IMG/VR virus record: IMGVR_UViG_3300032053_000011
Coordinates: 1-64,000 of that record
Strand: one strand, 5' to 3'
DNA length: 64,000 bases
Source of the DNA: a virus
Both the position numbers and the translations under genes were made by a program. Within the stretch, counting starts at the first letter, position 1. The number at the start of each line of letters is the position of its first letter. The notes under the pieces are model-generated. The model saw nothing but the letters and a program-made list of their open reading frames with translations, was not told the DNA's origin and ran no database searches. Shown piece after piece: positions 1,522 to 48,195 of the stretch.

Positions 1522-2385
1522 TCAGGGCGGGATGAGCGGCAGAACTGCGGCGATCTCGAGCCACCGGCGATGTCGTTTGTATAGCCAAGTTCCGGTTGCT
1601 CCGATGAACAATCCGATTCCGACGACTGCCCATGGGTTCTGCGGCATCGTATCTCCCTCCAGCGAGCATATCAGGACCGCGCAGCGATTGAAGCGAGCGT
1701 TGTACATCGCAGCTTCCATGGCTTCCTGCGCGCTCGGCGGACCGAAGTCGCGCAAGATCGACATGATCTCGTCTCGATCCACACCTGCATCCTCGGCCAG
1801 ATGGAACACATCCCAGGCGAGCCTCCGCGCTGCCTCGTCGCCGCCGCGGGCGAAGGTCATGGGTTGTTGCGGGGTGACGCTACGACGAAGGCCGATCGCC
1901 GGATCACGGAAGTAGCTGATCAGATGGATCGCCTCGAGGAACGCCTGATTCTTGTACTTCCAGAGGTCGGTCTTGTAGCGCTGCTCGAGCTCCTTGGCTT
2001 GGTCGGCGTCGAACGGACCATCCCAAAGTCGGCGAAGAAGCAACGTATCAGCGGTGAGCCGAGCCGTATCCGTAGCGAGCCTATCATCGTCGAGTTGGTA
2101 GACCGGCTCGTTCAGCGTGGAGCCGATCTGCATGTGATGTCGGCGATGCTGATGGATTGCCGTCATCCGTTCGATCACGCGCATGACGGCTTCTCCGGCG
2201 CGGTACGGCATCAGCGACGTCGTGAGCCCGGCGCCGCCGATTTCGAAGTTGATGTGCTTCCAGAGCCGCGCTGGAGTCTCGCCCTCCAGGGCCACCGCCA
2301 ATTGCAATGGCAGCTCACCTGCACGAATCGCGGCGGCGATCGCTCCGAAGAAGTGGATCGCGTACTCTTCGTCTTGCTGATTCAT
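1522..2385 (-). CDS. PL/GPPT-motif family paralogue with C-terminal TM extension
   Basis: GELPLQLAV...FGPPSAQEAMEAA, then hydrophobic tail PWAVVGIGLFIGATGTWLY; start at ATGA overlap. Confidence 0.7.
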   Translation of the reverse strand: MNQQDEEYAIHFFGAIAAAIRAGELPLQLAVALEGETPARLWKHINFEIGGAGLTTSLMPYRAGEAVMRVIERMTAIHQHRRHHMQIGSTLNEPVYQLDDDRLATDTARLTADTLLLRRLWDGPFDADQAKELEQRYKTDLWKYKNQAFLEAIHLISYFRDPAIGLRRSVTPQQPMTFARGGDEAARRLAWDVFHLAEDAGVDRDEIMSILRDFGPPSAQEAMEAAMYNARFNRCAVLICSLEGDTMPQNPWAVVGIGLFIGATGTWLYKRHRRWLEIAAVLPLIPP

Positions 2386-3014
2386 CCGCGCCGCCAGACT
2401 TCTGCGGCAGCCACGATCTGCTCGAGCGTTGGCGGTCCAAGCGCCGCAATGATCTCGTCGATCCATGGCTCTTGGCCCGGTGGATGTGGTGCATTGCGCG
2501 CGAGCACGATGAACTCTCGCAGCGCGTGCCAGGACGTCAGGCAGTCGATATGGCGCTGATTGTGCGACCGGGATCCCCGCCGCGTTGCGTCGGTCCACGC
2601 GGTGAGGCTTTCGAGCCCCCGTCGCAAGGTCAACCACACATTGGCGGGACCCCTTGCCACGGTCGCGCGAAGACGGTCCCTCAACAGCGGGTTCGATCCT
2701 GGTGAGCGTGCCTCCTGGGCCACTGCTTCTGCGCTCTCGGCCAGCCAAGGCGTGTCCGGGTAGATGGCGGGGAGCATCTCGACCATCCGTGCTACCAGCT
2801 CACGCCCGAGCCCCGCCACCATGAGCAAGTATGCCGGATTGTCGATACTCTCTCGGTCAGTGAGGCTCGCCATCCAGCCCGACCACATCTTCGCGAGATG
2901 GGCCGAAGTGAGCTGGACTGCGAGATGTAGCGGGATAGTTCCCCCTTCGATCGTGTTCCACAAATCGATCCAGAAGTCGTCCAGTCGGTCGTCGTCTTCG
3001 GTCCGCACTCTCAA
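2382..3014 (-). CDS. PL/GPPT-motif family paralogue
   Basis: GTIPLHLAV...LGPPTLEQIVAAAE. Confidence 0.8.
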   Translation of the reverse strand: MRVRTEDDDRLDDFWIDLWNTIEGGTIPLHLAVQLTSAHLAKMWSGWMASLTDRESIDNPAYLLMVAGLGRELVARMVEMLPAIYPDTPWLAESAEAVAQEARSPGSNPLLRDRLRATVARGPANVWLTLRRGLESLTAWTDATRRGSRSHNQRHIDCLTSWHALREFIVLARNAPHPPGQEPWIDEIIAALGPPTLEQIVAAAEVWRRG

Positions 3015-3400
3015 GATGGCTTCGGCCGCTTGCGCACCGCCTCTCGGATCGTCTCCACCAGCTCTGGCTGGAGGGTGAGATGAATGGGACCATCCGGTCC
3101 ATCGACCCAGGCCCAGTGGTGCACATCGGTGGGCTTCGTCTGCGCGATCGGTGTGACCGGATCAAACGGCGCTCCGACGGCGGTGATGAGCTGCCCCAGG
3201 GCAGCCCAGTCTTGCTCGGTCGAATGAGTGCGATCGAGGAGTTGCGCCGAGAACGCCCACTGCACGATCTCGCCGTCGTGGATCATGCAACTGACGCCGA
3301 TCCGCCACGCGCCAACCGACAGCCACTTGACCTGCCCGAGGGCGAGTCGCGCTTCGCTCTTGAGCGCGCGTACGTTGCGCAGTTCGCGTTCTGCCAGCAT
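3011..3400 (-). CDS. hypothetical protein
   Basis: First ORF of coupled run; TGnTACCGT -10-like element 7 nt upstream of ATG. Confidence 0.6.
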   Translation of the reverse strand: MLAERELRNVRALKSEARLALGQVKWLSVGAWRIGVSCMIHDGEIVQWAFSAQLLDRTHSTEQDWAALGQLITAVGAPFDPVTPIAQTKPTDVHHWAWVDGPDGPIHLTLQPELVETIREAVRKRPKPS

Positions 3401-3440
3401 GGCCAGGACGGTATCACACGGTCGCCCCGGGAGCGACAGA

Positions 3441-3469: not shown

Positions 3470-3475
3470 TATCTC

Positions 3476-4447: not shown

Positions 4448-4533
4448 GGAAGCATGGGCGAGATGGATTATGCCGGTGGACCCGAAACCCACCATGCCGC
4501 AAGGCATCCTCGGTTCGAATCCGAGTGCTTCCT
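4448..4533 (+). tRNA. tRNA-Ser(CGA), long variable arm, C33
   Basis: GGAAGCA/TGCTTCC acceptor, loop CCCGAAA, variable arm ATGCCGCAAGGCAT, T arm CTCGG-TTCGAAT-CCGAG. Confidence 0.8.
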
Positions 4534-4623
4534 CCGAAAGAGCATGACCAATGTGTCCGTTGCGTCGCCATCTGCCGAAGCGTTGCCCCGCGGGCCCCGC
4601 GGGGAAACCGCGGGAGCATCTAC

Positions 4624-4698
4624 GCGGGCTTGGCGCAGCGGGAGCGCAGTCGGCTCTTACCCGAACGGGCGAAGGTTCGAATCCTTCAGCCCGCACCA
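4624..4698 (+). tRNA. tRNA-Lys(CTT)
   Basis: GCGGGCT/AGCCCGC acceptor, loop CTCTTAC, TTCGAAT T loop, encoded CCA. Confidence 0.85.
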
Positions 4699-4774
4699 TG
4701 GAACGCGTCACTTCGAGCGTGGACGTCGTAGTTCGGCCCGCTCACCCGTGTGGTGAGCAGCAGGGTCGTCGTAT

Positions 4775-4845
4775 GCGGGCATGGCCGAATGGTGAGGCAC
4801 CGGTTCTACACACCGAGAATGGGCGTTCGATTCGCTCTGCCCGTA
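4775..4845 (+). tRNA. tRNA-Val(TAC), C33
   Basis: GCGGGCA/TGCCCGT acceptor, loop TCTACAC, T loop TTCGATT. Confidence 0.8.
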
Positions 4846-4884
4846 CCGAGAAGAGGAGGAGACGCGATTCGTTCGCAGCTCCTT

Positions 4885-4956
4885 CTCGACGTAGCCTAGT
4901 GGACAGGCAGCGAACTCCTACTTCGCGTCACCTCGGTTCGAATCCGGGCGTCGAGG
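4885..4956 (+). tRNA. tRNA-Arg(CCT)
   Basis: CTCGACG/CGTCGAG acceptor, GCGAA-CTCCTAC-TTCGC anticodon arm. Confidence 0.85.
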
Positions 4957-4983
4957 CCCAGAAGATACAACGCTCGCGCGCAT

Positions 4984-5058
4984 GCGTGAGTAACTCAGCG
5001 GAAGAGTACCCGGCCTATAACCGGGAGGTCCCGGGATCGTACCCCGGCTCACGCACCA
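4984..5058 (+). tRNA. tRNA-Ile(TAT), C33
   Basis: GCGTGAG/CTCACGC acceptor, CCCGG-CCTATAA-CCGGG, atypical T loop ATCGTAC, CCA end. Confidence 0.8.
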
Positions 5059-5134
5059 TGAAGACGACAACCACAAGCACGACCACCGCCGAGCGAACGA
5101 GCACACCACGCCGTTCGCTCCGCGACTCGCATGC

Positions 5135-5208
5135 GCCGGTGTCGCCCAATGGTGGGCCCCTCTTCTGTAAAGAGGACTGTGCAGGTTCGACTCCTGTCAC
5201 CGGCTCCA
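5135..5208 (+). tRNA. tRNA-Thr(TGT), C33
   Basis: GCCGGTG/CACCGGC acceptor, CCTCT-TCTGTAA-AGAGG, TTCGACT, CCA end. Confidence 0.85.
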
Positions 5209-5262
5209 TGAACTGCCAGCTCATTACCGGCGCTCGCGCATCGACGCGAGCGACTGATGCAT

Positions 5263-5334
5263 GCACGGATGGCTCAATGGCAGCGCGCCCGGCCGATTAC
5301 CGGGAGGTTCCGAGTTCGAATCTCGGTCCGTGCA
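5263..5334 (+). tRNA. tRNA-Ile(GAT), C33 and U37 (atypical)
   Basis: GCACGGA/TCCGTGC acceptor, CCCGG-CCGATTA-CCGGG, TTCGAAT. Confidence 0.75.
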
Positions 5335-5352
5335 CTCTGGTGGTACTGGAGC

Positions 5353-6027
5353 TGGCCGCTAGCACGATTTGGCTTTTCGTGGTTAGGATAGTTGGGATAC
5401 GCGCCGATGCCGATCTGCAATAAGTGCTCGGTGCCGTTCGCTTTCCATATAGTGATTGATGGTTGCAGGCGGAACTTAAAGAACCGGAAGTATTGTTTGG
5501 AGTGCTCCCCTTTCGGAAGGCACAACACGCGCACCCTGCACAATGATCCTGTCCTCCCAGGAACGTGTCGGTTGTGTGGAGCCGCGCTGGTAACGACGCG
5601 GAGACGTCGGTGCGAGGCGTGCGACACACTGATCCGTCGTTACCGTACCAAGCTGGCGGCGATCGTGTATCTCGGAGGGTGCTGCAAACGCTGTGGTTGG
5701 AAAGGTCACCCGGCAGCCTTTCAATTTCATCATCCGGGCGCGAAGGGCTTCACGATTGGCGGCGTCGCAAACAAGAGTTGGGATGTGATTAAGCGCGAGC
5801 TGAACAGGTGCGAATTGTTATGTGCTAACTGCCATCAGATCGAGCACAGTTCGCGTCGATTTGATCCGCGCGTCATCGCAGAGGCTAAGCGATACAGAGG
5901 TCGCTTGTTAGATGTGACCAAGCTCGTAGAACTTCTGGACACGTTGATAGCGCATCACCACTGATTGACTGATTGAACACTCCAAACTCCAAACCCGTTC
6001 GGTCCGGTTCGATCCCCGAGCGGCCTG
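5353..6027 (+). pseudogene. tRNA-Trp(CCA) split by HNH gene
   Basis: 5' piece TGGCCGCTAGCACGATTTGG (5353-5372); 3' piece CTCCAAA-CCCGT...TTCGATC...GCGGCCTG (5987-6027); acceptor halves complementary. Confidence 0.6.
5407..5964 (+). CDS. HNH endonuclease with N-terminal Zn-finger repeats
   Basis: CxxC pairs; GGCCKRCG...FQFHH...CELLCANCHQIEH; visibly lower GC than flanks. Confidence 0.85.
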   Translation: MPICNKCSVPFAFHIVIDGCRRNLKNRKYCLECSPFGRHNTRTLHNDPVLPGTCRLCGAALVTTRRRRCEACDTLIRRYRTKLAAIVYLGGCCKRCGWKGHPAAFQFHHPGAKGFTIGGVANKSWDVIKRELNRCELLCANCHQIEHSSRRFDPRVIAEAKRYRGRLLDVTKLVELLDTLIAHHH

Positions 6028-6072
6028 CCTTGCACAGATTACCGAAGCAGCAACGCCAACAGGCGTAGCTAT

Positions 6073-6145
6073 TCGGGGATCGTACAACTGGTAGTACACC
6101 AGCCTCTGAAGTTGGCCGATGCGAGTTCGAATCTCGCTCCCCGAT
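6073..6145 (+). tRNA. tRNA-Gln(CTG)
   Basis: TCGGGGA/TCCCCGA acceptor, CCAGC-CTCTGAA-GTTGG, TTCGAAT. Confidence 0.85.
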
Positions 6146-6148
6146 CCG

Positions 6149-6539: not shown

Positions 6540-6788
6540 ATGCGCCTGTCCACGCCTCCTCAAGCGGTCACCGAGATCGCTCTGGAGGCCGAGCGTCTCG
6601 GCGCCAACGTGCTCTACCGGAGCTGCGGGTGGGGCGAGGCGCACATCGACATCTTCGATGCGCCACTTGGCCTCGGAACGCGGCTGCATCGGGCTGGGTT
6701 CGAGCTGAGTGCCTTTCGCGAGCGGTACTGGCGCTGGTGCATCGCGACGATGCCCGCGGACCCGATTACGGATCGACCACCGTCCTAG
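6540..6788 (+). CDS. hypothetical protein
   Basis: ORF downstream of deaminase, converging on next gene. Confidence 0.5.
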   Translation: MRLSTPPQAVTEIALEAERLGANVLYRSCGWGEAHIDIFDAPLGLGTRLHRAGFELSAFRERYWRWCIATMPADPITDRPPS

Positions 6789-7093
6789 CGCCTCTCGAGC
6801 TCGTACTCGAAGTACAAGTTCACGGCCTCTGGGTCAGAATCCACGCGAATGTAAATTCCAGGGACGTCGGCGAACGCCGCGTACATCGCCTCGATGGTGC
6901 GCTTCCTCTTCCTCGCCACGAAGATATCGAGGATAGGTGTCTCGACGCCGCCGTACGCATCATCGCGCAGCCAGACCTCGACCATTACCTGGGGGTGCTT
7001 CCGCAGCAGATCGTTCAGGACCAGGAAGAGCGCCAGCGGGATCTGCCAGCCTTCCGCGATGAGCGACTCCAGCTTCTCGACGTTCGTCATCAT
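6785..7093 (-). CDS. hypothetical protein, tandem paralogue A (VEKLESLIAEGWQIPLAL N-terminus)
   Basis: Near-identical N-terminus to 7090..7383; ATGA coupling. Confidence 0.7.
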   Translation of the reverse strand: MMTNVEKLESLIAEGWQIPLALFLVLNDLLRKHPQVMVEVWLRDDAYGGVETPILDIFVARKRKRTIEAMYAAFADVPGIYIRVDSDPEAVNLYFEYELERR

Positions 7094-7383
7094 CGCGCAT
7101 CGAACACGAAGTAGATTATCTCGGACTCTTCGACGTCGTCGATATATGGATTCATCCCGGACAATGCCTTTGCAACGGCGATAACTGACCGCTTTGCCGT
7201 CTTCGGGACGGAGATTTGCAATTCGTCTTCTTCGCCGCCTTCGTCGATGTTGACCCATATCTCGGGGTGCTTCGGCAGCAGATCGCTCAGGACCAGGAAG
7301 AGCGCCAGCGGGATGTGCCAGCCTTCTGCGATGAGGGACTCCAGCTTCTCGACGCTGGTCATGATATCGGCTGGCCGGGTCAC
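7090..7383 (-). CDS. hypothetical protein, tandem paralogue B
   Basis: VEKLESLIAEGWHIPLALFLVL; DNA repeat with previous gene. Confidence 0.7.
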   Translation of the reverse strand: MTRPADIMTSVEKLESLIAEGWHIPLALFLVLSDLLPKHPEIWVNIDEGGEEDELQISVPKTAKRSVIAVAKALSGMNPYIDDVEESEIIYFVFDAR

Positions 7384-8003
7384 CGGCGCACCGGCGGGCC
7401 CCAGGCCTCTGCCGCGGCCACGATCTGTTGCAGCGTCGGAGGTCCCATCGCCTTCACGATCTCTTCGGTGGCGAACTCCGGGGGCAACTCACGCGATCCA
7501 TCCATTGCTCGCTTCAAGCGCATCCATAGATTCTCGACGACGAAGTTGCGATCGCCGATCGGCGTTCCTGGCATTCTGGATATCGGGTCGAGTACCCAGG
7601 TCACTTCCTTGAATGTCGACCACCCAGCGATGCGAGGGATGTGCGGCGTATAGTTCAGATGATGACGGAGCGCTGGCAGATCGACTGAGCCTGGGTAGAC
7701 GCGTTCCTGTTCCAGCTTGGCGATCACCTCGGCGCACTCGCTGGCATGCACCGGCGGGCATCCGGCGGCGACGCGGTAGGCCAGCCGGAATATCAGCTCC
7801 TCATGCAGCCGGAGATCGATCAACCACTCCACGCGATGCGGAATACTGAACAGGTCCCACGCCTGCGCCAGCCGCTCGTCCGTCCACTGCACCGCATCGG
7901 ACAGTGGCACCGTGCCATCGTGGACCACGGCATCACGGACATCCTTCCAGATGCGGCGCGCTTCGGGGGGCTTCATCGCTACAGCGATCCTACTGTCAGG
8001 CAT
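7380..8003 (-). CDS. PL/GPPT-motif family paralogue
   Basis: GTVPLSDAV...MGPPTLQQIVAAAE. Confidence 0.8.
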   Translation of the reverse strand: MPDSRIAVAMKPPEARRIWKDVRDAVVHDGTVPLSDAVQWTDERLAQAWDLFSIPHRVEWLIDLRLHEELIFRLAYRVAAGCPPVHASECAEVIAKLEQERVYPGSVDLPALRHHLNYTPHIPRIAGWSTFKEVTWVLDPISRMPGTPIGDRNFVVENLWMRLKRAMDGSRELPPEFATEEIVKAMGPPTLQQIVAAAEAWGPPVRR

Positions 8004-8027
8004 CCGATCCGTCGAGGAACGTGACGG

Positions 8028-8582
8028 TCAGCCTTGCGCGCTGGCCAAGGCCTGCGCCGCGCCGACGATCTGTTCGATCGTCGGCGGACCGAACGAGAGA
8101 AGGAGTTCGCGCGACGTAGTGTTCAGTTCGTTGGCGGCAACTCGCTCGAGGATGATCGGAAGATGATGCGCCGGGTACGCCTCCGGCGCCTGAATCCACC
8201 AAGTCAACTCCAGGATCATCTCGCGAAGCGCTGCGCTCCGTAGCTTCTCGAGCTGCTCGCGCACTGGTTTCAGATCGACGGTCCCGGGCGGCTCGCCGAC
8301 CGCGCGCTCAACCGCCGCGATCAGATGCCTCGCGGCAGTCGCATCGTCAGGGTCGCGCAGCGCAACATTCCATACGACGCGATCCACCAGATCCAGCGCG
8401 AAGACCGTTTGCAGTGAGAGTTTCGTGAGTACTCCGCGAAGGAGATTGTTGTTGAGTTGCTTCCAGGATGAGGCGAGGCGTTCCGGCGTCCATGCGACAG
8501 CACAGTGCAGCGGCACCTCCCCATTCATGCGCACCGCCAAGACGACTTCGTTCCAGAGTGCCTCGGCGTCTTGAGTCTTCAT
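8028..8582 (-). CDS. PL/GPPT-motif family paralogue
   Basis: GEVPLHCAV...FGPPTIEQIVGAA. Confidence 0.8.
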   Translation of the reverse strand: MKTQDAEALWNEVVLAVRMNGEVPLHCAVAWTPERLASSWKQLNNNLLRGVLTKLSLQTVFALDLVDRVVWNVALRDPDDATAARHLIAAVERAVGEPPGTVDLKPVREQLEKLRSAALREMILELTWWIQAPEAYPAHHLPIILERVAANELNTTSRELLLSFGPPTIEQIVGAAQALASAQG

Positions 8583-8589
8583 CGGTTCC

Positions 8590-9195
8590 TTACCACTGCT
8601 GTGTCGAGCCAGCCCAGACTTCTGCTGCCGCCAGGATCTGCTCGAGCGTGGGCGGGCCGAAAGACCGCACCATCTTCCAGAGTGTCACGTCGTCGCCACT
8701 CAACAACCGAGCGCTGTCTAGCGCACGAGTGAGCGACGCTGCAACGAGGTTTAGATTGCTTCGAAGACCGATCGGGTAGCGCAGTCGATAGTGCGGATCC
8801 AAGATCCAGGCGACCTCGCGCAACGGCTCTGCTGTCGGGATCATCATGGCTGACATGGTCCTCAGCCGAACCATCCAGTCGCTGTCCCGATTGATCGTTG
8901 GCTCCAAGTACTCCTGATCCATCATGGCGATGACATCAGCGAGGGCCGGATCCGACTCGCCGACCCAATGCACAAGCTGCATCGCCAACGGCTCGTGCCG
9001 CAGCAATACAACGAGCAGTCGGATCATCCGATTGCGCGACTCGTGAGTGCTGAAGTGCCCGCGGTTCGGCGTCAGCGCCCATGCCTCGGCGAGCGTGTCG
9101 TCCGTACAGTTGATGGCGAGGTGCAGCGGGATCTCTCCCGCGACAACGGCCTTCTCGATGTCTTGCCAGAGCTTCACCATTTCCGGCGCTCTCAT
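8590..9195 (-). CDS. PL/GPPT-motif family paralogue
   Basis: GEIPLHLAI...FGPPTLEQILAAAE. Confidence 0.8.
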   Translation of the reverse strand: MRAPEMVKLWQDIEKAVVAGEIPLHLAINCTDDTLAEAWALTPNRGHFSTHESRNRMIRLLVVLLRHEPLAMQLVHWVGESDPALADVIAMMDQEYLEPTINRDSDWMVRLRTMSAMMIPTAEPLREVAWILDPHYRLRYPIGLRSNLNLVAASLTRALDSARLLSGDDVTLWKMVRSFGPPTLEQILAAAEVWAGSTQQW

Positions 9196-9680
9196 CGCCG
9201 TCCGCCGATCGGAAGAATGGTCGCTGCGTAAGCGACTGTCTCATCGAGCGTCGGCGGCCCTGCGGCGAAGATCATCTCCGCAGTGTGTTGGCGATCCAGT
9301 CCCGCGTCTTCGATGCTGCCGAGCATCTCCGAGGTTCCATGGAAAATTCGGCCGAGCGCAAACCAGCCGTGATACTGCGTATGTTTCTGGGGATCATCGA
9401 ACCATGCCTGCCCGATCTGGCAGAACCGCGACCAGTCATGTTGCGTCGCTCGCGCCTCTTCGATGATCGCGTCGGAGAATCCCGCGTTGCGTGCTACCTC
9501 CAGGACCAGTGGTTCGAGCGCCCCAGGTCGTGCGCGCAGCCAACGGACGCGTTCGACGGTGGTGGCGTCATGCCACGTCCTTCGCAATACGCCCCGTGCG
9601 GTGAGTTCAACCGCGAGCGTCAGAGGCACCTCTCCCGTGACTTCGATCGCATCGAGAATCTGTCGCATCCGGCTTTTCAT
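9192..9680 (-). CDS. PL/GPPT-motif family paralogue
   Basis: GEVPLTLAV...AGPPTLDETVAYAA. Confidence 0.8.
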   Translation of the reverse strand: MKSRMRQILDAIEVTGEVPLTLAVELTARGVLRRTWHDATTVERVRWLRARPGALEPLVLEVARNAGFSDAIIEEARATQHDWSRFCQIGQAWFDDPQKHTQYHGWFALGRIFHGTSEMLGSIEDAGLDRQHTAEMIFAAGPPTLDETVAYAATILPIGGRR

Positions 9681-10249
9681 GGCGTGGCCCGGGCGGCAGC
9701 TTGCACCAGTTCATCGAGCGTTGGGGGGCCCGCTGCGCGAATCAATGCATGCCAGTTCTCGCGCCTCTCGGCATCGAGGTCGACGTTGAGGACGACGGAC
9801 AGCGCCGTCCGGCGCCATGATCCGCTGAGCCGCAGAGGAACTCCCGCCAATACGCGAGAGAGGTACCCGAGTCCAAGCCAGCCACGGTAGCCAACCGATT
9901 CACGGCTATGACGCTGGTTCTGAATCCCAACGAGCCTCTCTTCGGATCTCGCGCGCTGCGTGCCAACCGCAGAGAACTCTCCCCAGTTACCCAGTGCCAG
10001 TTGCATGGCCTCATCGGCCTCATCGCGCCTGAGTCCAAAGGCCGCAGTCCAATCATCGATCAGCTCGGACCACACCGGTGCATGTGGCCGTGTGATGGCG
10101 AGGAGCACTGTCCGGTCGAGATCCGACGCGCGCTTGCCCTGCCATGCCGCGTGAAACGCGCCGGGTTCCGCCAGCGCGACAGCCATGTGCAACGGGATCG
10201 TCCCTGACACTGCCGCGTCCGTGATCTCGGAGAGACTGAGGACGGTCAT
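9677..10249 (-). CDS. PL/GPPT-motif family paralogue
   Basis: GTIPLHMAV...AGPPTLDELVQAAA; start at ATGA overlap. Confidence 0.8.
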   Translation of the reverse strand: MTVLSLSEITDAAVSGTIPLHMAVALAEPGAFHAAWQGKRASDLDRTVLLAITRPHAPVWSELIDDWTAAFGLRRDEADEAMQLALGNWGEFSAVGTQRARSEERLVGIQNQRHSRESVGYRGWLGLGYLSRVLAGVPLRLSGSWRRTALSVVLNVDLDAERRENWHALIRAAGPPTLDELVQAAARATP

Positions 10250-10728
10250 CTTGGCCTCGCGACCGCCGCAAGGATCTCCTCGAGCGTCGGCGGGCCGCCA
10301 GCTTTCAGGATTTTGCGAAGCACCGTCGACCGCACCCCGGCCTCGCGGAATCGTTCGATGGCGACATCGGAACTCCATGGCTTGAGGAGGAAAGCGAGCG
10401 CACGAATTCCAACTTCGGCGCGTTGGAATGCACCGGTTGATAGGCCACGAGACAGCATGCGACCCATGTAGTCGATCATGGACCTGTCGGCGTCGAACCA
10501 TGCCGAGAGAGTTTCGAACTCGTCAGTCTGCAACTCCGACGCACGAATGATGGCGTCGACGAGCGGTCGAAGAGCCGCTGGTCGCGTCCAGATCAGCAGC
10601 CAATAGCGATCGGCGTCGTTCGCTTCCGCCCACGCGTGATGGAGTTGCCCCTCGATCTCGACCGCCAGGGCCAAGGGCAACTCTCGGCGTCCGATCGCGC
10701 GGGAGACCGCTGTGATCGCAAGGCTCAT
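10246..10728 (-). CDS. PL/GPPT-motif family paralogue
   Basis: RELPLALAV...GGPPTLEEILAAV. Confidence 0.8.
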   Translation of the reverse strand: MSLAITAVSRAIGRRELPLALAVEIEGQLHHAWAEANDADRYWLLIWTRPAALRPLVDAIIRASELQTDEFETLSAWFDADRSMIDYMGRMLSRGLSTGAFQRAEVGIRALAFLLKPWSSDVAIERFREAGVRSTVLRKILKAGGPPTLEEILAAVARPR

Positions 10729-11219
10729 CGCTCGCCGTTCTCGGCACGCATATGGGCGGCTGCTGCGACGATCTCGGCGATCGTTGGAATGCCCTGTGGC
10801 TGTAGCATCGAATCACGAACAAACTCGTGTGGCACTCCGGCCTGATACATGTCGTAGAGATCCCCGGTGGTCAGCGTCCTGTCTTGTACGCGCGCCGTGC
10901 GGATGAGTTGCCATGCCCACGACGAGGGCATCGATACTCGCAGCATCTCTACGCCAGCTCCACGCGGGAGAGGGTCTCCACGCAAGACGTGCTCGGCGAG
11001 CGTGGGGTTGATCCCCGAGTACAGAGCTGCGAGGCGCGCGCCATCTCGCAGCCTGAAAGCTTGCGGGCGCACGCGGGCTAGCACATCGAACACTCGGTCG
11101 ACGTTCGCCCGGCGCCATGCGCGCGCCAGCCGTCCCGGTGCATCGAGCTCGATCGCGAGCGCCAGTGGGATCTCGCCCTGGTCGATGGCGTCGATGATCT
11201 GCTCGACAAGATTTCTCAT
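10725..11219 (-). CDS. PL/GPPT-motif family paralogue
   Basis: GEIPLALAIELDAP...GIPTIAEIVAAA. Confidence 0.8.
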   Translation of the reverse strand: MRNLVEQIIDAIDQGEIPLALAIELDAPGRLARAWRRANVDRVFDVLARVRPQAFRLRDGARLAALYSGINPTLAEHVLRGDPLPRGAGVEMLRVSMPSSWAWQLIRTARVQDRTLTTGDLYDMYQAGVPHEFVRDSMLQPQGIPTIAEIVAAAAHMRAENGER

Positions 11220-11719
11220 CGGCTGTGAAGCCTCTGCATCCCTGCCGTATGTTCCGCGGCGGCGATGATCTCTGCGATGGTTGGCGGGCCTTCGGGACGG
11301 AGCATCGAATCGAGAATGAAGTCGTCGGGGACGTTCGAACGCCCCAGGTTGTAGAGCGTGCGCGCACTCGGCATGGTGTTCACCATGGCCTCCTTGATGA
11401 CCTCCCACGCCCAGAACCGCGGCGATGATGGCCGAAGCTGCGCCACGCTCTCGGGGATCGGTTGGTGATCGCGCAGGACCGCTTCGATGGTCCGAGAATC
11501 GATTCCCGCGAAATAGGCAGCGCTACGCGCCCAGCGCTGGATCTTCATGCGGTGGCGACGCGTACGCAGGAGCATCTCGAAGAGAACGTGCGGCTCCTTC
11601 ATCTGGTCCCACGCACGCGCCAGACCATGCGGCGCATCGAGCTCGATGGCGAGTGCGAGCGGAATCTCGCCCCTGTCGATCGCATCGATGGCTCGCACCA
11701 GCAGGGATACGCGGCTCAT
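11216..11719 (-). CDS. PL/GPPT-motif family paralogue
   Basis: GEIPLALAIELDAP...EGPPTIAEIIAAAE; closest relative of previous gene. Confidence 0.8.
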   Translation of the reverse strand: MSRVSLLVRAIDAIDRGEIPLALAIELDAPHGLARAWDQMKEPHVLFEMLLRTRRHRMKIQRWARSAAYFAGIDSRTIEAVLRDHQPIPESVAQLRPSSPRFWAWEVIKEAMVNTMPSARTLYNLGRSNVPDDFILDSMLRPEGPPTIAEIIAAAEHTAGMQRLHSR

Positions 11720-12231
11720 CGATAACCTTCGGCCGCCCGCACCGCGTCCGCCAGGGTCGGCGCGCCAGCGGCGCGAAGGATCGAGAGAAGGCGTTGACCA
11801 TTGATCACGCCCTCCCTCAACAACCCCTCTCGCTCCATCCAGGCCAGTGGCAGCTCGTCCCAACTGAGAAGTTTGTTGATGACGCCGCTACCCTGTTGTT
11901 CAAGCGTGTCGCGGATGCGCGTATTGACGTATGACCGCCATCGGTGACTGCCCTCGACTATATCGTTGACGGTCTCCAGATAGATCAACGGCACGCCAGT
12001 CCCGGTGGCGATCTCGCGCGCCAACGGCAGCATGGCCTCCTTTGGATGTGTTCGCACAAGCATCTCGTGCAGGACGCGAGGATCCTCGCATCGATCCCAC
12101 TCCTCATGCATGCGCTCATCCGTCATATGCACGGCCAGATGCAGCGGGATCTCATGCGCATCGATCGCGTCCATGATGTTCGACAGGAACATGCACCGCG
12201 ACATGACCATGCTGAACATGCCATCGGTCAC
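11716..12231 (-). CDS. PL/GPPT-motif family paralogue
   Basis: HEIPLHLAV...AGAPTLADAVRAAE; GTGA overlap start (uncertain). Confidence 0.75.
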   Translation of the reverse strand: MTDGMFSMVMSRCMFLSNIMDAIDAHEIPLHLAVHMTDERMHEEWDRCEDPRVLHEMLVRTHPKEAMLPLAREIATGTGVPLIYLETVNDIVEGSHRWRSYVNTRIRDTLEQQGSGVINKLLSWDELPLAWMEREGLLREGVINGQRLLSILRAAGAPTLADAVRAAEGYR

Positions 12232-12821
12232 TGCGGCCAGCTCTCTGCCGCCGCGACGATCTCGAGCATCGACCGCGGCGCCAAGGCCTCGCCCTGATCT
12301 TTCTGTGAGCTCACTGGCGAGCCACAGTGTTCCAGTACGCGCGCGGCTGTCCTGGTCAGCGTCAGAAGCGCGCGCTGCCGGTCGAGCGAAAGGTCTCCGC
12401 CCGATGGCGATGTCGCGCGATTCCAGATTAGGACATGCACGACATTCCACATCGCGCTGATCGCCATCCGATCGCAACCGTCGCTTCGTCGGCTCTGTCG
12501 AGTGAGGTCCTCGGTCAGATCAGGCAGATTGATCGAGAGTGGGGTCATGACCTCGAGTTGGACCTCTTGCGCCACACGGCCGAGAAATTCTGCGGTGACC
12601 GGCTCGAGTCCCGGCAGATCCGCCAGTAGATGCGCAACCCTGACCGCGAGAGCGGCGTCGCGGCCCAGCGCCACGAGCATGAGCATCTGGATCGCTGGTC
12701 CCGACTCGCGCCAGCCCTCGAGCAGCCGAGCCTCATCAAGCTCCACGGCCATGTGCAACGGAATGTTGCCCGGCCCGAGCATGATCCGATCGACGAGGTC
12801 GGTGTACCAGGGTGTCGCCAT
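12228..12821 (-). CDS. PL/GPPT-motif family paralogue (divergent C-motif)
   Basis: GNIPLHMAV...APRSMLEIVAAAESW. Confidence 0.75.
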   Translation of the reverse strand: MATPWYTDLVDRIMLGPGNIPLHMAVELDEARLLEGWRESGPAIQMLMLVALGRDAALAVRVAHLLADLPGLEPVTAEFLGRVAQEVQLEVMTPLSINLPDLTEDLTRQSRRSDGCDRMAISAMWNVVHVLIWNRATSPSGGDLSLDRQRALLTLTRTAARVLEHCGSPVSSQKDQGEALAPRSMLEIVAAAESWPQ

Positions 12822-12823
12822 GA

Positions 12824-13447
12824 TCAGTCGTGCAGCATTCGTGGCGCGGGCGGCGCCGAGGCCATGAAGGTCTCGAGCGCGGTCCGCAACCATTGCGCAA
12901 CCTCCCGCTCCGCAGCTTCGGGCGACATCCGCTCGCCCAGGCAGCCTTCCAACAGCGCCTCGCAGATCGTCTCCAACTGGTTGACTGTCTCTCGTGCGAG
13001 ATGCTCATCGTCATCGGTCTGTTGCTCGACGCCGGTGATGAGCCAGTACACGCCGCTCGCGAACGTCCAGGTTGCGTATGTACGCGGCGCGGAACCAGAC
13101 AACTGCGCCTCGAGGTCGCCCACGAGTTCCTGCATCTGATCGGCAGCCTTCGTCACCATGCGCCGCGGAACTTTGCCGCCCGTCGCCAGCTTGAGCGGGA
13201 TACCGATGGCGGTTCCAACCCGCTCAGCGAGATCGTCGCCGACACAACTCATCTCTCTGAGAAAGAGCATCGCCATCGCCCCGCGCAACATCGTCGGGTC
13301 CATCTTGCGGATGTACTGGAGGAACTCGAACATCGCGTACGGATCCCGGGAATGACTCCAGGCCCACTGCGCATATGTCAGGTCCGGCTGTTCGCCGTGG
13401 GCAGCGCGCACGAGCAATTCGCGCATCGGATCTGAGATGGAAGCCAT
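12824..13447 (-). CDS. helical hypothetical protein, probable distant family member
   Basis: GEQPDLTYA..AW..S.DPYAM resembles family N-region; TACGGT -10-like element 6 nt upstream of ATG. Confidence 0.6.
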   Translation of the reverse strand: MASISDPMRELLVRAAHGEQPDLTYAQWAWSHSRDPYAMFEFLQYIRKMDPTMLRGAMAMLFLREMSCVGDDLAERVGTAIGIPLKLATGGKVPRRMVTKAADQMQELVGDLEAQLSGSAPRTYATWTFASGVYWLITGVEQQTDDDEHLARETVNQLETICEALLEGCLGERMSPEAAEREVAQWLRTALETFMASAPPAPRMLHD

Positions 13448-13484
13448 GTGGTTACCGTATCATCGGTGTCGTGGGCTCGCGACT

Positions 13485-14171
13485 TTACGGTGGCTCTTGG
13501 GTCAGCCGGACTGCGGCGCCGATGATCTCCGCTGGCGTTGGCGGACCGATCGAGGCGAGAAACGTCTGAAAGTTCTGCTCGATCTCCGCTACGAAGGCCT
13601 CTGCTGCGAAGTCCTGTCCAGGGCGGAGACGACTCTGGATGCCGACGCGCAACGCTCGCATCAGCATCGTGACGCCATGATCGGTGTCGTAGCCGTCCTG
13701 GATGCCCCCCACTGCGTCACCGAGTGCAAAGATGATCCAACTCGAGTTCCATGGCTCGCGATTCAACTCACGAAGATCCGAGACGAAGCTCTCGATGGAG
13801 CGCGGTTCCATCTCGCCTGCCAGCACGGCTTTCGTCGTCTTCAACCCTGTGCGCAGGCGTTCCCACACGCGAGCATCGAGGTCGTCTTTCAGAGTGCCGA
13901 CGTTCTTGGCCATCAACGTCAGCACGGCCTCCGCGAAATGGCGCGGGCGTGTATGGAAGATGATCGCGTTGCGAATACTCGCGGTACCGATGAGATTCCA
14001 TTGGAATGCGATCGTCGTCGCACAGAGCGTCTTCACTGTCTTGTTGCTGGCTCGCCCCCATGCATGCTCCAGCGCGTCGGGCGTCATCTGTACCGCGAGG
14101 TGGAGAGGGATGGGTTCCAAGCCATCAAAGCAGGAAGCGATGGCTTCCAGAATGGTCGGCGGCGCCGTCAT
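13485..14171 (-). CDS. PL/GPPT-motif family paralogue
   Basis: EPIPLHLAV...IGPPTPAEIIGAA. Confidence 0.8.
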   Translation of the reverse strand: MTAPPTILEAIASCFDGLEPIPLHLAVQMTPDALEHAWGRASNKTVKTLCATTIAFQWNLIGTASIRNAIIFHTRPRHFAEAVLTLMAKNVGTLKDDLDARVWERLRTGLKTTKAVLAGEMEPRSIESFVSDLRELNREPWNSSWIIFALGDAVGGIQDGYDTDHGVTMLMRALRVGIQSRLRPGQDFAAEAFVAEIEQNFQTFLASIGPPTPAEIIGAAVRLTQEPP

Positions 14172-15388: not shown

Positions 15389-15394
15389 GCCATG

Positions 15395-35073: not shown

Positions 35074-35495
35074 GTTGGAGCGCGATCGCAAGCGCCGTGC
35101 GAGTAGGGCATCTGCCGCTGGATCTGGCCATCTGGGCAGAGGGTCCCGACGCCGCGCGCGCGTGGGCTGACCTCCTATTTGCCGCGCGCCTTGATGTATT
35201 GGTCCTTCTGCCGGGAACTCCAGCCAAGTTCTACGAGCAGGTCTGCGCCGCCATCCGTCTGGCCTCGAATCCTGACCCGGCTGTTCGGCGCGGCTACAGG
35301 GCTAGCGACTTTGACTTCCTCCTGAACGAAGACGGAACACATCTCTCGCTCCAATTCCTACACGAAATGTTGCACGCCCGATTTATCAGGGGCTCATGCA
35401 GGGGCTCATGGGCATTGGTGAATGCGGCAGTTCCTCACGTCTATCCGGCGCCTACGATCGGTGAGCTTGTCGAAGCCGCTGAATGGCGACAATGA
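35070..35495 (+). CDS. PL/GPPT-motif family paralogue
   Basis: GHLPLDLAIW...PAPTIGELVEAAEW. Confidence 0.75.
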   Translation: MSWSAIASAVRVGHLPLDLAIWAEGPDAARAWADLLFAARLDVLVLLPGTPAKFYEQVCAAIRLASNPDPAVRRGYRASDFDFLLNEDGTHLSLQFLHEMLHARFIRGSCRGSWALVNAAVPHVYPAPTIGELVEAAEWRQ

Positions 35496-40272: not shown

Positions 40273-40881
40273 CTATCCGCGGTTCGCATTGACGACGTCA
40301 GCTAGAATATCCCGGTGCGCGAGTTGTGCGCGTACGATGTCCGCAAGCGCTGGCAAGCTCAAGGTCTCATGCGTACGTCCTGCCGCCGCGATGCTGGTAT
40401 CGATCGCTTCGTCGAGTTCCTCGCCGACCGTGGTGGAAACCACGAGAGCTGCCTCAGAGGCCGTACGAGTCGCATGTCGCGAAATGAGATCCTCGAAAGA
40501 CCCGTCGGCCGCAACGGAAGCGTCTTCAGCAGCGACGCGCACGTCCCAGATGCCAACAGAAGTGTCGCCAGCCGCATAGCGGCTGGCGATATCGATCGCT
40601 ATCCAGGCTTTCTCGTGTGCATGTGCATTCGCTGCATAAGGCAGGGCAGCTTTAGCGATGGCGAGAGCGGCGCGCGCATACTCGGCATGCGGCGTAGCTC
40701 GCGAGGCGATTCTCAACAGATCATTTGGATTGCGGCTTGTGGCCCATGCTCTCGCGAATTCCTCGGCGTGCGCGACGGCCCAATGCAGTGGGATAGGCTC
40801 CATATCGCATAGGTATTTGAGTACTTCTTCCAGGCGCAGTCGGAGCTGCAATCCTACAGAGAACTCGCGCGGGTGGCTCAC
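40273..40881 (-). CDS. family-related protein with Imm5-like Ala-rich helical core
   Basis: EPIPLHWAV; AIDIASRYAAG; C-terminus IVRAQLAHRDILADVVNANR. Confidence 0.7.
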   Translation of the reverse strand: MSHPREFSVGLQLRLRLEEVLKYLCDMEPIPLHWAVAHAEEFARAWATSRNPNDLLRIASRATPHAEYARAALAIAKAALPYAANAHAHEKAWIAIDIASRYAAGDTSVGIWDVRVAAEDASVAADGSFEDLISRHATRTASEAALVVSTTVGEELDEAIDTSIAAAGRTHETLSLPALADIVRAQLAHRDILADVVNANRG

Positions 40882-41501
40882 AGCGCCGACCGGTTCGCAT
40901 TCACGACATCGGCCAGAATGTCGCGGTGCGCGAGTTGCGCGCGTACGATGTTCGCCATGCCATCCCAGATCGCGACGCGGTCCGCCCGAGTGCGAGCTGT
41001 CGTGGAACTGAGCCAAACGGCCTCGACAGCGGCCTCCGCAGAACTCACGGCGGAATCCGCAGCATCGTATGAATCCACCGCCAGCGCGAGGAAGGCAGCA
41101 TCCCCCGCCGCCCTGGCAACTTCACGTGAGATGCCTCCGCGGTCGGTCACGGCATCCGCCGTGTCGTTGCATGCCTCCCGTACGTCATCGGCTGATGCTT
41201 CCCCACGTGCCCATGCTTCAGCGATGTCGATCGCTTTCTCGGGTCGATCGTCGTAGGCGCTGGGCAGAGCCTTCTTCGCGATGGCGGATGCCGCGAGCAC
41301 CAGTGCTGGCCGGGGCACTGCGAATGCTGCGATCTTCAAGAGCAGACTCGCATGGCCACTGCGAGCCCAGGCATGTGAGAATTCTGTCGCGTGCTCGACA
41401 GCCCAGGACAGCGGAATTGGATCGCCAGTGCTGAGATGGCTGATGGTAGCCTCGAGAATCAGTTCGTCTTGCTCGTCTCGCTCGAGCTTCTGTCGGCTCA
41501 T
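40878..41501 (-). CDS. family-related protein with Imm5-like Ala-rich helical core
   Basis: DPIPLSWAV; DDRPEKAIDIAEAWARGEAS; same C-terminus as neighbour. Confidence 0.7.
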   Translation of the reverse strand: MSRQKLERDEQDELILEATISHLSTGDPIPLSWAVEHATEFSHAWARSGHASLLLKIAAFAVPRPALVLAASAIAKKALPSAYDDRPEKAIDIAEAWARGEASADDVREACNDTADAVTDRGGISREVARAAGDAAFLALAVDSYDAADSAVSSAEAAVEAVWLSSTTARTRADRVAIWDGMANIVRAQLAHRDILADVVNANRSAL

Positions 41502-45403: not shown

Positions 45404-45886
45404 TCAGCCGAAGTGCAGGCGCGGGCGCCGCTTATTTTCGGCCCATTCAAGCCAAGCGCCCCACGAAATGACCGTGAACGTACCGTTGGCAACATCGTAG
45501 AGCACGGTTGGATCGTACGTCTCACCGGTGTTCACATAGAGCGCTGCCGGTCGGCTGCTGGAATTGTCGAGGCTGACAACGCCATGGAATCCCATCAGAG
45601 CGTTCACCTCCTCGAGATATCTCTCCGCTACATCATCGTCCATGACTGGCTGCTCTGGCGGCATGGCCACCAGCAGGACCAATCGCGGCAACATCGCAGG
45701 GTCGGTGAACCGTGCCGATCTGGATCGCACAAGCCGGAGTGCGCCGTCGAGCATCGAGAAATCGATGCGCGGACCTGCATCGGACTCGATGGCGCTCATC
45801 AATGCCACCACGGTCGCCAGATCGAACTTGTCAGCGTGGGCTCTCACGAACTCGTCGAGTCGACGCCGCTCTCTTGCTCGATTCAT
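45404..45886 (-). CDS. hypothetical phage protein
   Basis: GFHGV...YVNTGETYDPT.LY...SWGAW; ATGA coupling. Confidence 0.6.
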   Translation of the reverse strand: MNRARERRRLDEFVRAHADKFDLATVVALMSAIESDAGPRIDFSMLDGALRLVRSRSARFTDPAMLPRLVLLVAMPPEQPVMDDDVAERYLEEVNALMGFHGVVSLDNSSSRPAALYVNTGETYDPTVLYDVANGTFTVISWGAWLEWAENKRRPRLHFG

Positions 45887-46476
45887 CGACGCCCCTCGAT
45901 CACTGTGAGCATTTCAGAGAGGCTCGGCTCTGGGCGGATGGCGCTGCGCATCGCATCGCAAACCTCCGGCATGACGTCGCTCTCGTTTCGGCGAGTGAGC
46001 ACCGCGATTGCTCGCGCGACTCTGATGGCCATCCCGGCGCAGACATCCTGCGAATCGCTCATCGCATGCCGAGGACCGAGCATGTTCATGGTCGCACTCT
46101 CGACCGCGTCCATGTACTGCTGAATGGCACCGCGCTCGACGACAAGCACATTCTCCTCCGACTCACTCAGGCGCGTCGCGCGACGAAGGAGGTCGGCTAC
46201 CCGCATGCGCCATTGCGACTCTCGCTGATGGATCCAGGCGCCCCGGGCCAAGACTGCCTGCGCGATCGCACTGAACTGCTCGAGGGAAACCGGACGTCCC
46301 AAGCCAGCGTGGACAACAGCGAGGATGGCATACGGATCGGTGGACGCTCGCCAAGCTGCGGTCACCGGGTCGATCCGGCCGCCGTCCGAATATTCGACTG
46401 CCCAGGCAAGCGGCGGGGCAGTGCCTTCCCGGAAGAAGTCCAGAATGTCGTCGAGACTGCGGGATGGACGGTTCAC
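45883..46476 (-). CDS. PL/PPT family, 'PPLAW..DPV' subfamily
   Basis: GTAPPLAWAV..GGRIDPVTAAW...PEPSLSEML. Confidence 0.75.
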   Translation of the reverse strand: MNRPSRSLDDILDFFREGTAPPLAWAVEYSDGGRIDPVTAAWRASTDPYAILAVVHAGLGRPVSLEQFSAIAQAVLARGAWIHQRESQWRMRVADLLRRATRLSESEENVLVVERGAIQQYMDAVESATMNMLGPRHAMSDSQDVCAGMAIRVARAIAVLTRRNESDVMPEVCDAMRSAIRPEPSLSEMLTVIEGRR

Positions 46477-46991
46477 GCTGGACCGCGCTCGATCCGCGCA
46501 AGAAGCTCTGACATCATGAGCGGAGGTATCTGAGCACGGATTTCATCGGCGACTCTCTGACGTGATTGCAGAGACTTACCATCGCCATCGAACAACCACC
46601 CGATCGTTTCTGTCATCAGTTGGACCAGCCAGTATACGCGTATCTCGCCGCGAGTAACGTCAGGAAGTTGATCAAGAGCGGCTCGATAGCGACCAATGGC
46701 TTTGGTCAGGGTGGCTCCTTTCCGGCCCTCCCGGATAGCTCTCATGAGAGTCGCATGGCCGAGTTCGATGAGTGCCAGCATCACTCCATGCAGTGCAGAT
46801 GGGCGGAGGTGTTCCAAGAGATCAGCCATGTGCGCTGGCTCGACAGAGTCGATCCAGGCCGCGCTTACGGGATCGATCTGTCCGCCTCTGGACCGCGTGA
46901 CTACCCATGCCAGCGGCGGAGCCGTTCCGTCCTGCGCAAAGGTCAAGACCTCCCGGATTGGGTCCTGACTCGTCGATACAGCTTTGCTCAT
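46473..46991 (-). CDS. PL/PPT family, 'PPLAW..DPV' subfamily
   Basis: GTAPPLAWVV..GGQIDPVSAAW...IPPLMMSELLARIERG. Confidence 0.75.
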   Translation of the reverse strand: MSKAVSTSQDPIREVLTFAQDGTAPPLAWVVTRSRGGQIDPVSAAWIDSVEPAHMADLLEHLRPSALHGVMLALIELGHATLMRAIREGRKGATLTKAIGRYRAALDQLPDVTRGEIRVYWLVQLMTETIGWLFDGDGKSLQSRQRVADEIRAQIPPLMMSELLARIERGPA

Positions 46992-47542
46992 GCCGAACCA
47001 CGCTCGATCCGCGCGATCAGCTCCGGGAACGTCGGCGGCACGACCTGAGAGCGGATGGCGTTGGCAACAGCGTGGTGCGCCGCCGGGGCATGGGCGATTC
47101 CTTCAGTCGCCATTCCGATGGCGTTCGCCACTTCACTGACTGACCAGTGAATAGCGTCGCGCCTGCCTTCTGGCTTGAAGACTGGGTCCACCATCACTTG
47201 TGCGCGCTCGATGGCAGATAGATATTCCTTCGAGGCTCTCGCCAATGATTTTGGCAGTCGTATCGGATCACCCAAACGAAGCACATCGGTCACCTCTTTT
47301 ATGTGCTTTATCCACACGAAACTACCGAGCTCGAGAACTGCCTGCATCGCACGACGTAATTCGACTTCGTCCTGACGAAGAACATCAAGAAGTCTTGTCA
47401 TGACGAAAACGTGTGCTGACGCATTCCAGACCGCTGTAACCGGATCTTGGCCGTCTGCCGAATGTTCGATTGCCCATCGCAACGGCGGAGCGACGCCTTC
47501 GTTCAGCCACTCGTATAGCTCGCCGATAGGGTCGGGTGTCAT
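46988..47542 (-). CDS. PL/PPT family, 'PPLAW..DPV' subfamily
   Basis: GVAPPLRWAI..GQDPVTAVW...VPPTFPELIARIERG. Confidence 0.75.
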   Translation of the reverse strand: MTPDPIGELYEWLNEGVAPPLRWAIEHSADGQDPVTAVWNASAHVFVMTRLLDVLRQDEVELRRAMQAVLELGSFVWIKHIKEVTDVLRLGDPIRLPKSLARASKEYLSAIERAQVMVDPVFKPEGRRDAIHWSVSEVANAIGMATEGIAHAPAAHHAVANAIRSQVVPPTFPELIARIERGSA

Positions 47543-48195
47543 CGATGCGGCCGTTCGATCCACGCCAGGAATTCAGCATATGTCGGTGCTGGGACATGCG
47601 CGCGAATGACATCGGAGACGATGCGATGCGCTTCGAGATCCTCGGCATGTCCAGCAGGACCTGCCAAGCCGATCGCCTGAGCAACGTGATCAACTGCCCA
47701 CATCGCTGCACCAATAGGATGCTTCTCGCCGCCGATCAATGGCTCGCGAATCGACAGTGCCGCACCGGCACGTAACGAGTCGCTATACAGACGAATGGCC
47801 GCTTCCAGCGCTGATTCTCGATCTCGAAGTTTCGGAGACTCCCCGATGAGCATGGCTCGAATGACTTGGTCTGGAAAGGTGCCCTCGTCATTCCAAACGA
47901 ATCTGCCAACTTCGAATACTGATGCGACGAGATGGATGAGATCGGCACGACCGTCCGGCGTGTCGTTCTGTTCTCGTAACCAGTAAAAGACAAGGTTGAT
48001 CATCATTCCAGGCTTGAGCGATGCCGCCCAAATCGCATTCACAGGATCAACCTGTCCACCTCGTGACCATTCAATTGCCCATGCCAATGGCGGGATAGTA
48101 TGCGTAGTCCAGAAAACATAGAGCTGATCGATCGGATCTTTTCGCAGGGACAGCCGTTCATCGGTCTTGCCCTGGCTCAGACGCTTCTTGCTCAC
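47539..48195 (-). CDS. PL/PPT family, 'PPLAW..DPV' subfamily
   Basis: TIPPLAWAI..GGQVDPVNAIW...PAPTYAEFLAWIER. Confidence 0.75.
   Translation of the reverse strand: MSKKRLSQGKTDERLSLRKDPIDQLYVFWTTHTIPPLAWAIEWSRGGQVDPVNAIWAASLKPGMMINLVFYWLREQNDTPDGRADLIHLVASVFEVGRFVWNDEGTFPDQVIRAMLIGESPKLRDRESALEAAIRLYSDSLRAGAALSIREPLIGGEKHPIGAAMWAVDHVAQAIGLAGPAGHAEDLEAHRIVSDVIRAHVPAPTYAEFLAWIERPHR

Follow-up and report, generated by a model that had tools for sequence, protein, structure and literature searches.

The mostly helical immunity family Imm5 is paired with deaminase toxins of the DYW clade in the excerpted text of Iyer et al. (PMC3239186), where it is put forward as a scaffold able to meet toxins of several types. 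Imm5 is likewise listed with DYW deaminases and CdiAC in excerpts of Zhang et al. (2012; PMC3482391), in which polyimmunity loci are tandem arrays of immunity genes without toxins. The all-helical immunity determinant SsdAI, as presented in an excerpt of PMC7901873, inserts a protrusion into the active site of SsdA, a deaminase toxin of a type VI secretion system, and, following Iyer 2011 and de Moraes 2021, would be expected to belong to Imm5. Earlier work has described immunity families, SsdAI and polyimmunity loci, and a literature search for phage-borne Imm5-like arrays found none, as judged by title or abstract. Here, a family of small proteins encoded largely in tandem was analyzed in bases 1-64,000 (the window) of IMG/VR record IMGVR_UViG_3300032053_000011, a linear record of 137,514 base pairs (bp) derived from a large uncultured phage. 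An earlier note, made from the DNA sequence of the window, had described this family as fixed N- and C-terminal motifs around variable middles. We give about an even chance to the reading that the family is a lineage-specific expansion, with at least 27 copies, of a very diverged branch of the Imm5_like/SsdAI-fold superfamily, and that it forms a phage-borne, polyimmunity-like set of inhibitors.

Family membership was established with a seed hidden Markov model (HMM) built from 12 obvious members and iterated over all 1,716 stop-to-stop open reading frames (ORFs) of at least 50 amino acids (aa) in the record. The iteration converged on 26 members plus a borderline one at 12824-13447 (expectation value (E) 0.0038), which places 24 in the window. 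The extension of the search to the rest of the record, as the earlier note had proposed, added three, at 77538-78194 (+), about 89306-89743 (+) and 115446-116096 (+). Each late-joining member had first been picked up, at E ≤ 4e-4, by a profile from which it was absent, and the reversed-ORF controls gave no match at E < 0.01 (best 0.023). All of the ORFs named in the earlier note exist and belong to one family, and the extent claimed there (about 14 kilobases (kb), products of 140-290 aa) agrees with the 14,032 bases (22% of the window) and 141-287 aa measured after the starts had been set from gene overlaps. The fixed motifs stood in relaxed form only: the literal consensus strings occur in three of the 24 window members each, whereas a relaxed N-terminal core ([IVLMP]PL..[AV][VI] and then W) is present in 23 of them and in none of 1,689 non-member ORFs. 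GPPT, from the C-terminal motif, was found in 11 of the 24 members and in three of the 1,689 non-member ORFs. The family is real and coding. The codon-position guanine-cytosine (GC) content of its members is like that of neighbouring genes, and conserved residues are written with several synonymous codons (four for proline and four for glycine). Moreover, an identical 20-aa tail shared by the products of 40273-40881 and 40878-41501 is encoded with differences at 8 of 60 bases; together with the synonymous codon variety this indicates that selection acts on the protein, and that the identity does not stem from recent DNA duplication.

The bridge to a known family is the member at 40878-41501 (-; 207 aa). 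The statement of the earlier note that no Pfam family could be recognised holds for 23 of the 24 window members, but not for this one, which matches PF21805 (Imm5_like, "putative immunity protein") with 23.1 bits (E 7.5e-5), short of the 25-bit cut-off; in a six-frame search with PF21805 it scores 23.8 bits. Pfam and PHROGs searches with eight members were blank, and NCBIfam returned chance-level rows only for the 24 members. When a profile of the 24 members was compared with 1.84 billion representative proteins, 166 proteins matched at E ≤ 1e-3, about 19 of the best 150 being the record's own. PF21805 matches, mapping to the middle of the protein, were present in seven of 100 external full-length relatives (best E 3.9e-9), and one external relative, P0123, exceeded the cut-off with 27.3 bits. 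A genome scan with P0123 led to seven loci in bacterial metagenome-assembled genomes (MAGs; L001-L007) assigned to Actinomycetota, Acidobacteriaceae, Planctomycetota (two), a 'Deltaproteobacteria' MAG, Spartobacteria and Archangium. A profile made of these seven bacterial proteins alone found 40878-41501 almost from end to end (E 4.3e-20, profile positions 20-190) and the adjacent 40273-40881 (-; 202 aa, GTGA overlap) at E 3.3e-3, and no other ORF of the record at E < 0.1, i.e., full-length homology applies to two of the 27 members. On these matches the pair can be assigned to bacterial Imm5_like, with which it has in common its length, an all-helical make-up, two tryptophans in the N block and an 'IVR' helix at the C-terminus.

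The other members resemble the bacterial proteins far less. Neither the Pfam model nor the bacterial profile finds 22 of the 24 window members; in addition, two features of the bacterial proteins, the AIE.AE.WARG motif and an alanine/tyrosine-rich tract (long mid-protein tracts rich in alanine, tyrosine and aspartate in L001-L004), are missing from the phage array members, which carry a GPPTLEEIVAAA end instead and belong to a family of 27 copies in one phage record. Their tie to Imm5_like is transitive and runs through the shared end blocks: it follows from the iterated HMMs and from an hhalign comparison of the array group with the 40878 group (probability 96.6%, E 5.6e-10). Taking the PF21805 match, the bacterial profile and the external relatives together, the family, which had been called a strong candidate for an undescribed system, is rather a distant offshoot of the putative immunity proteins of Imm5_like.

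Structure prediction was applied to two of the 27 members. The AlphaFold2 model of the array member 8590-9195, based on alignment A1, has 12 helices (predicted local distance difference test (pLDDT) 84.9, predicted template modelling score (pTM) 0.81), and that of 40878-41501, based on alignment A4, has 10 helices (pLDDT 95.7, pTM 0.91). For the latter, Foldseek ranked chain 7jtu_B first (probability 0.99, template modelling scores 0.46/0.49), with later rows at probabilities of at most 0.16. The exhaustive aligner VIA gave 7jtu_B a Z of 10.8 (147 of 193 residues), 3f7c_A 10.4 and 2q9r_A 10.1, followed by the next match at 6.7. With the 8590 model and 48,161 chains of the PDB, VIA placed 3f7c_A at rank 1 (Z 8.0), 2q9r_A at rank 2 (Z 6.7) and 7jtu_B at rank 4 (Z 5.8, 136 aligned residues). 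It is the return of the same three chains for both models, and not the Z values alone, that lends weight to a shared fold; the two subfamilies, whose cores cannot be aligned, are thus predicted to have the same SsdAI/DUF416-like fold. Chain B of 7JTU would be SsdAI, judging from the entry and the description in the paper. Among the structural matches of both models SsdAI ranks first or nearly so; like them, it is an all-helical single domain of about 190 aa, whereas identity in the structural alignments is 11-13%, no sequence match exists at E ≤ 10, and no deaminase toxin partner was identified here. The DUF416 structures (PF04222; 3F7C, 2Q9R) match as strongly as SsdAI (Z 10.4 and 10.1 for 40878, 8.0 and 6.7 for 8590), while the Pfam model finds nothing in the record at E ≤ 1, so that the likeness is one of fold only. 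In both cases the match takes in the core together with the greater part of the C-terminal helices (about residues 40-194 of the models). Because it starts at residue 40-49, SsdAI and DUF416 lack a counterpart of the N block, and the phage proteins have some 40 extra residues at their beginning. When PDB and BFVD were searched by Foldseek with the 8590 model, no match reached E ≤ 1e-3; a phage protein labelled 'Imm-5-like domain' appeared at rank 15 with a probability of 0.30. PDB sequence searches with alignments A2 and A4 gave chance-level rows only, and the ESM Atlas offered no usable feature match, its own model of the protein being poor (pLDDT 0.39). Each copy, as part of a superfamily of small cytoplasmic all-helical proteins, is predicted from these models to be one compact domain of about 10-12 helices. 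This does not favour the picture of the middle as an exchangeable domain held between two motifs, as drawn in the earlier note: both models are single compact all-helical domains that retrieve the same three PDB chains.

That the middles cannot be aligned by sequence, as had been seen by eye, was confirmed. With the cores alone, five of 300 paralogue pairs reached a blastp E < 1e-3, and core HMMs in leave-one-out tests recovered one of 25 members at E < 0.01. Identity among the array paralogues amounts to 37% in the N block, 22% in the core and 37% in the C block. When metagenome proteins are paired with their orthologue-like counterparts here (16 pairs, 28-68% identical overall), the respective values are 64, 49 and 61%. 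A core identity of 49% in these pairs implies that the copies are old and that each is maintained, and that the cores are not hypervariable in time. The helices between the blocks have diverged past sequence recognition among paralogues, yet each is kept in orthologue-like relatives.

If the family is indeed a set of inhibitors, each paralogue would bind one protein and block it, in the way SsdAI plugs SsdA's active site, and the diverged middle would set the choice of target. The set would be produced from long, translationally coupled operons, and its targets would be many different toxic enzymes, either abortive-infection and defence effectors of the host or toxins that neighbouring bacteria inject into the infected cell. 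For a large, diversified family whose ends are conserved and whose middles have diverged, the best reading remains the one suggested in the earlier note, a repertoire of proteins for interaction, anti-defence or immunity. The arrangement resembles polyimmunity loci, as far as these are portrayed in the excerpts of PMC3482391, in its tandem same-strand arrays, its diverged immunity-type paralogues and the lack of an adjacent recognisable polymorphic toxin: the genes upstream of the arrays encode ParB-like and NAGPA proteins, which are not recognised polymorphic toxins. It differs in that those loci are bacterial, on chromosomes or mobile elements, whereas the present set is part of the genome of a large phage, shows translational coupling, fills 22% of the window and has a putative, i.e., predicted, immunity role.

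Several observations weigh against inhibition and against the proposed kinship. No target was identified for any member, and binding is putative; in the literature, no experiment on Imm5_like was found. The curated 25-bit cut-off of PF21805 is reached by none of the 24 window members, and 23 of them have no Imm5_like match at all. PF14423 (Imm5), PF22011 and PF04222 (DUF416) found nothing in the whole record (PF14423 and PF04222 at E ≤ 1), and 7jtu_B was not found by the family profiles at E ≤ 10. The hhalign comparisons between subfamilies are confident only over the N block (about 50 columns) and the C block (about 25 columns). The Z values of 5.8-8.0 for the 8590 model are within a range common for helical bundles, and the two models are not fully independent, as alignment A1 held 40878 and 40273 as two of its 24 rows. 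Furthermore, a Pfam scan of 10 ORFs neighbouring the seven bacterial relatives detected a Dam-type methyltransferase only and no recognisable polymorphic toxin. To our knowledge, Imm5_like is itself a predicted immunity family, and we know of no function for DUF416, which matches the fold equally well. These last three points would also suit a helical family that expanded in the phage lineage in some other role, be it a DUF416-like function, a regulator or a chaperone-like factor. We regard such a role as unlikely: many old paralogues arranged in tandem, with surfaces that are kept but mutually unalignable, are the pattern of immunity and inhibitor repertoires in the excerpted text of PMC3482391, unlike that of single-function housekeeping proteins.

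The conserved ends can be read in two ways. According to the earlier note, they might form a docking handle for one common partner, for example a virion-loading site or a host enzyme, with the middle as cargo or as a variable presenting surface. In line with this, the ends are better conserved than the middles among array paralogues (37% vs 22%), hhalign is confident at the ends only, and the first 40 or so residues, outside the part aligned with SsdAI and DUF416, would make an extra module. However, the same N and C blocks are present in bacterial chromosomal relatives, W45 being invariant in all 28 rows of alignment A4 including five bacterial MAG proteins, which makes their conservation older than this phage. 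The models, moreover, are single domains (pTM 0.81 and 0.91), and no pointer to a cleavage site or a virion link turned up, although no dedicated search was made for either. We therefore hold a docking handle to be quite improbable. Instead of a handle specific to the phage, the two blocks look like elements of an ancestral fold: the N block (a helix, then a PL..AV turn and a second helix that ends in W) and the C block (a GPP turn between a helix and a T-capped helix) would be fold-holding elements retained from bacterial relatives. Local likenesses of both blocks to other proteins were noted. The N block of the family profile (positions 12-30, G..PLHLAV) matches two giant ankyrin proteins, P0038 and P0062 (E 7.4e-11 and 1.4e-8); this resemblance is one local helix-turn motif, and an identity as ankyrin repeat proteins was rejected, as no Pfam Ank family matched any of the 24 members at E ≤ 1. 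The C block (..LRa.GPPTLEEiv.A.., e.g., at 8590-8650) resembles a C-terminal segment of a retroviral capsid, 7t15_A, which was the top row of the PDB sequence search with alignment A2 (E 0.0097) and is probably a convergent helix-turn-capped-helix motif.

The largest group of members is a 13-gene array at 7380-14770 on the minus strand. In agreement with the mostly ATGA/GTGA coupling reported for it, 4-nucleotide start/stop overlaps were found at eight of its 12 junctions, and all six remaining pairs of adjacent members also overlap by 4 nucleotides. One terminator-like site was detected inside the array, within the member 9192-9680 (consensus scan; shuffles of the region average 5.0), and the sole promoter-like hit of the consensus scan, at 7142-7115, lies outside it. 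The first member, 14168-14770 (-; 200 aa, GTG start), is one of the seed set (N HMM E 1.5e-18, C HMM E 1.7e-17) and follows, after a gap of 48 nucleotides, the gene 14819-15388 (-), whose 189-aa product has a GmrSD_N/DUF262 ParB-like domain (E 9.2e-11) as its sole domain. It is followed on the same strand by 13485-14171 (-; 228 aa, ATGA overlap with the preceding gene) and by 12824-13447 (-; 207 aa), the borderline, degenerate member, which sits inside the array, has the N block QPDLTYAQWAW and no GPPT, and was recognised at the above E of 0.0038 by a final profile lacking it. The next gene, 12228-12821 (-; 197 aa), has a degenerate C block (APRSMLEIVAAAE) and a seed HMM E of 6.2e-7. Then come 11716-12231 (-; 171 aa, GTGA overlap) and a run of genes with ATGA overlaps, namely 11216-11719 (-; 167 aa; nearest paralogue 10725, core blastp E 2e-12), 10725-11219 (-; 164 aa), 10246-10728 (-; 160 aa), 9677-10249 (-; 190 aa), 9192-9680 (-; 162 aa) and the modelled representative 8590-9195 (-; 201 aa). 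The array ends with 8028-8582 (-; 184 aa), which has a 68% identical metagenome relative (P0014), and 7380-8003 (-; 207 aa), for which an alternative start exists at 7976. Directly after the array lie two genes of a separate mini-family, 6785-7258 (-) and 7090-7383 (-), which share a near-identical N-terminal stretch (..VEKLESLIAEGW[HQ]IPLALFLVL..), then diverge, and have no match in Pfam.

A second group, the four-gene sub-array at 45883-48195, starts with 47539-48195 (-; 218 aa, PPLAW type; E 1.8e-9 with a profile built without it), the start of which overlaps (GTGA) the end of the NAGPA phosphodiester-glycosidase gene 48192-48926 (-). It continues with 46988-47542 (-; 184 aa, ATGA overlap; E 1.5e-6 at inclusion), 46473-46991 (-; 172 aa, ATGA overlap; E 3.9e-4) and 45883-46476 (-; 197 aa, GTGA overlap; E 1e-4). 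A NAGPA domain is also found in the 441-aa metagenome protein P0106, where it is followed by a hydrophobic stretch and a family domain, along with a weak match to DUF6931 (E 0.012), on which the literature search found nothing relevant; that on DUF416/YjaG returned other DUF numbers only. A frameshifted fusion of the NAGPA gene and the family member in the window was considered and rejected, as no linker exists in the three frames and the two genes are separate with a GTGA overlap. The least convincing explanation of the family, in which its members would neutralise the phage's own enzymes with each group downstream of its 'toxin', could draw on the ParB-like gene in front of the 13-gene array (Tox-ParB being a listed polymorphic toxin domain in the excerpted PMC3482391), on the overlap between sub-array and NAGPA stop, and on the joined domains of P0106, but is very improbable, as thirteen different immunity proteins for one 189-aa protein are hard to justify, the hydrophobic, membrane-helix-like stretch (by eye) in P0106 would place its domains on opposite sides of a membrane, and the other groups follow genes without a recognisable enzyme domain.

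The other members in the window are a pair on the minus strand, a single gene and a pair on the plus strand. The gene 2382-3014 (-; 210 aa) has a TTGA overlap with the upstream gene 3011-3400, and 1522-2385 (-; 287 aa, ATGA overlap; seed HMM E 1.2e-8) has a C-terminal extension with a hydrophobic stretch that looks like a membrane helix by eye. The solitary member 23462-24088 (-; 208 aa; seed HMM E 3e-21) also extends beyond the GPPT block at its C-terminus. The short member 35070-35495 (+; 141 aa; seed HMM E 1.5e-5) is the first of the plus-strand pair, and overlaps (ATGA) with 35492-36118 (+; 208 aa; seed HMM E 2.4e-8). Outside the window, the member at about 89306-89743 (+) has the family N block behind a cysteine/histidine-rich, zinc-finger-like leader (CIGCG...HEHQC), and only its N part matches the profile (positions 12-63).

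The genomic setting is that of a large phage with a GC content of about 62%. Eight clustered tRNA genes are located at 4448-6147 (+), and a tRNA with a CUA anticodon, which reads TAG and was called Pyl by ARAGORN, lies apart from them at 16506-16580 (-). Besides the ParB-like GmrSD_N and NAGPA glycosidase genes, the window encodes a peptide deformylase, a small cytidine-deaminase-like protein, an M20 peptidase, a GHKL-type ATPase, a KaiC/DnaB-like ATPase and an SLT transglycosylase. CheckV estimated the completeness of the record at 93%. The database places proteins of the window on a contig of 247,125 bp and the relative P0023 on one of 111,128 bp; four family members that are absent from the 137.5-kb record (P0036, P0040, P0043 and P0151) are recorded on a contig that also measures 247,125 bp. 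Based on the equal contig size alone, the full genome may thus be that of a jumbo phage of about 247 kb, of which the record would be roughly half despite its completeness estimate, and the family may have at least 31 members. Relatives elsewhere sit on short contigs; four relatives share a contig size of 3,889 bp, and two on a contig size of 5,988 bp match neighbours in this array; these shared sizes suggest tandem arrays on other metagenome contigs. Megablast with 20 kb of the window gave no match, nor did 50,697 deposited phage records when queried by tblastn with two members; scans of IMG/VR with 8028-8582 and with P0023 and a metagenome scan with P0023 found no relative, and a homologous-protein search with alignment A1 returned four matches, three of them the window's own.

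If the proteins are not inhibitors, the family would represent an ordinary lineage-specific expansion. If they are, a single phage would carry dozens of them, each of which could point to an unknown bacterial toxin or defence effector; this would provide a starting set for target fishing and extend the idea of the polyimmunity locus from bacteria to phages. More tentatively, and with less confidence than we place in the inhibitor set itself, large phages might come equipped with whole libraries of SsdAI/Imm5-like inhibitors (at least 27 in this case, probably more than 31), every one matched to its own toxic effector from host defence systems or neighbouring bacteria, with the N-terminal module of about 40 residues, which the solved SsdAI and DUF416 structures lack, as a shared handle for a common step such as loading, localisation or turnover. 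Should this be true, it would be a general and so far unpublished counter-defence strategy of phages, and the family would offer a naturally occurring collection of binders with which unknown toxins could be sought.

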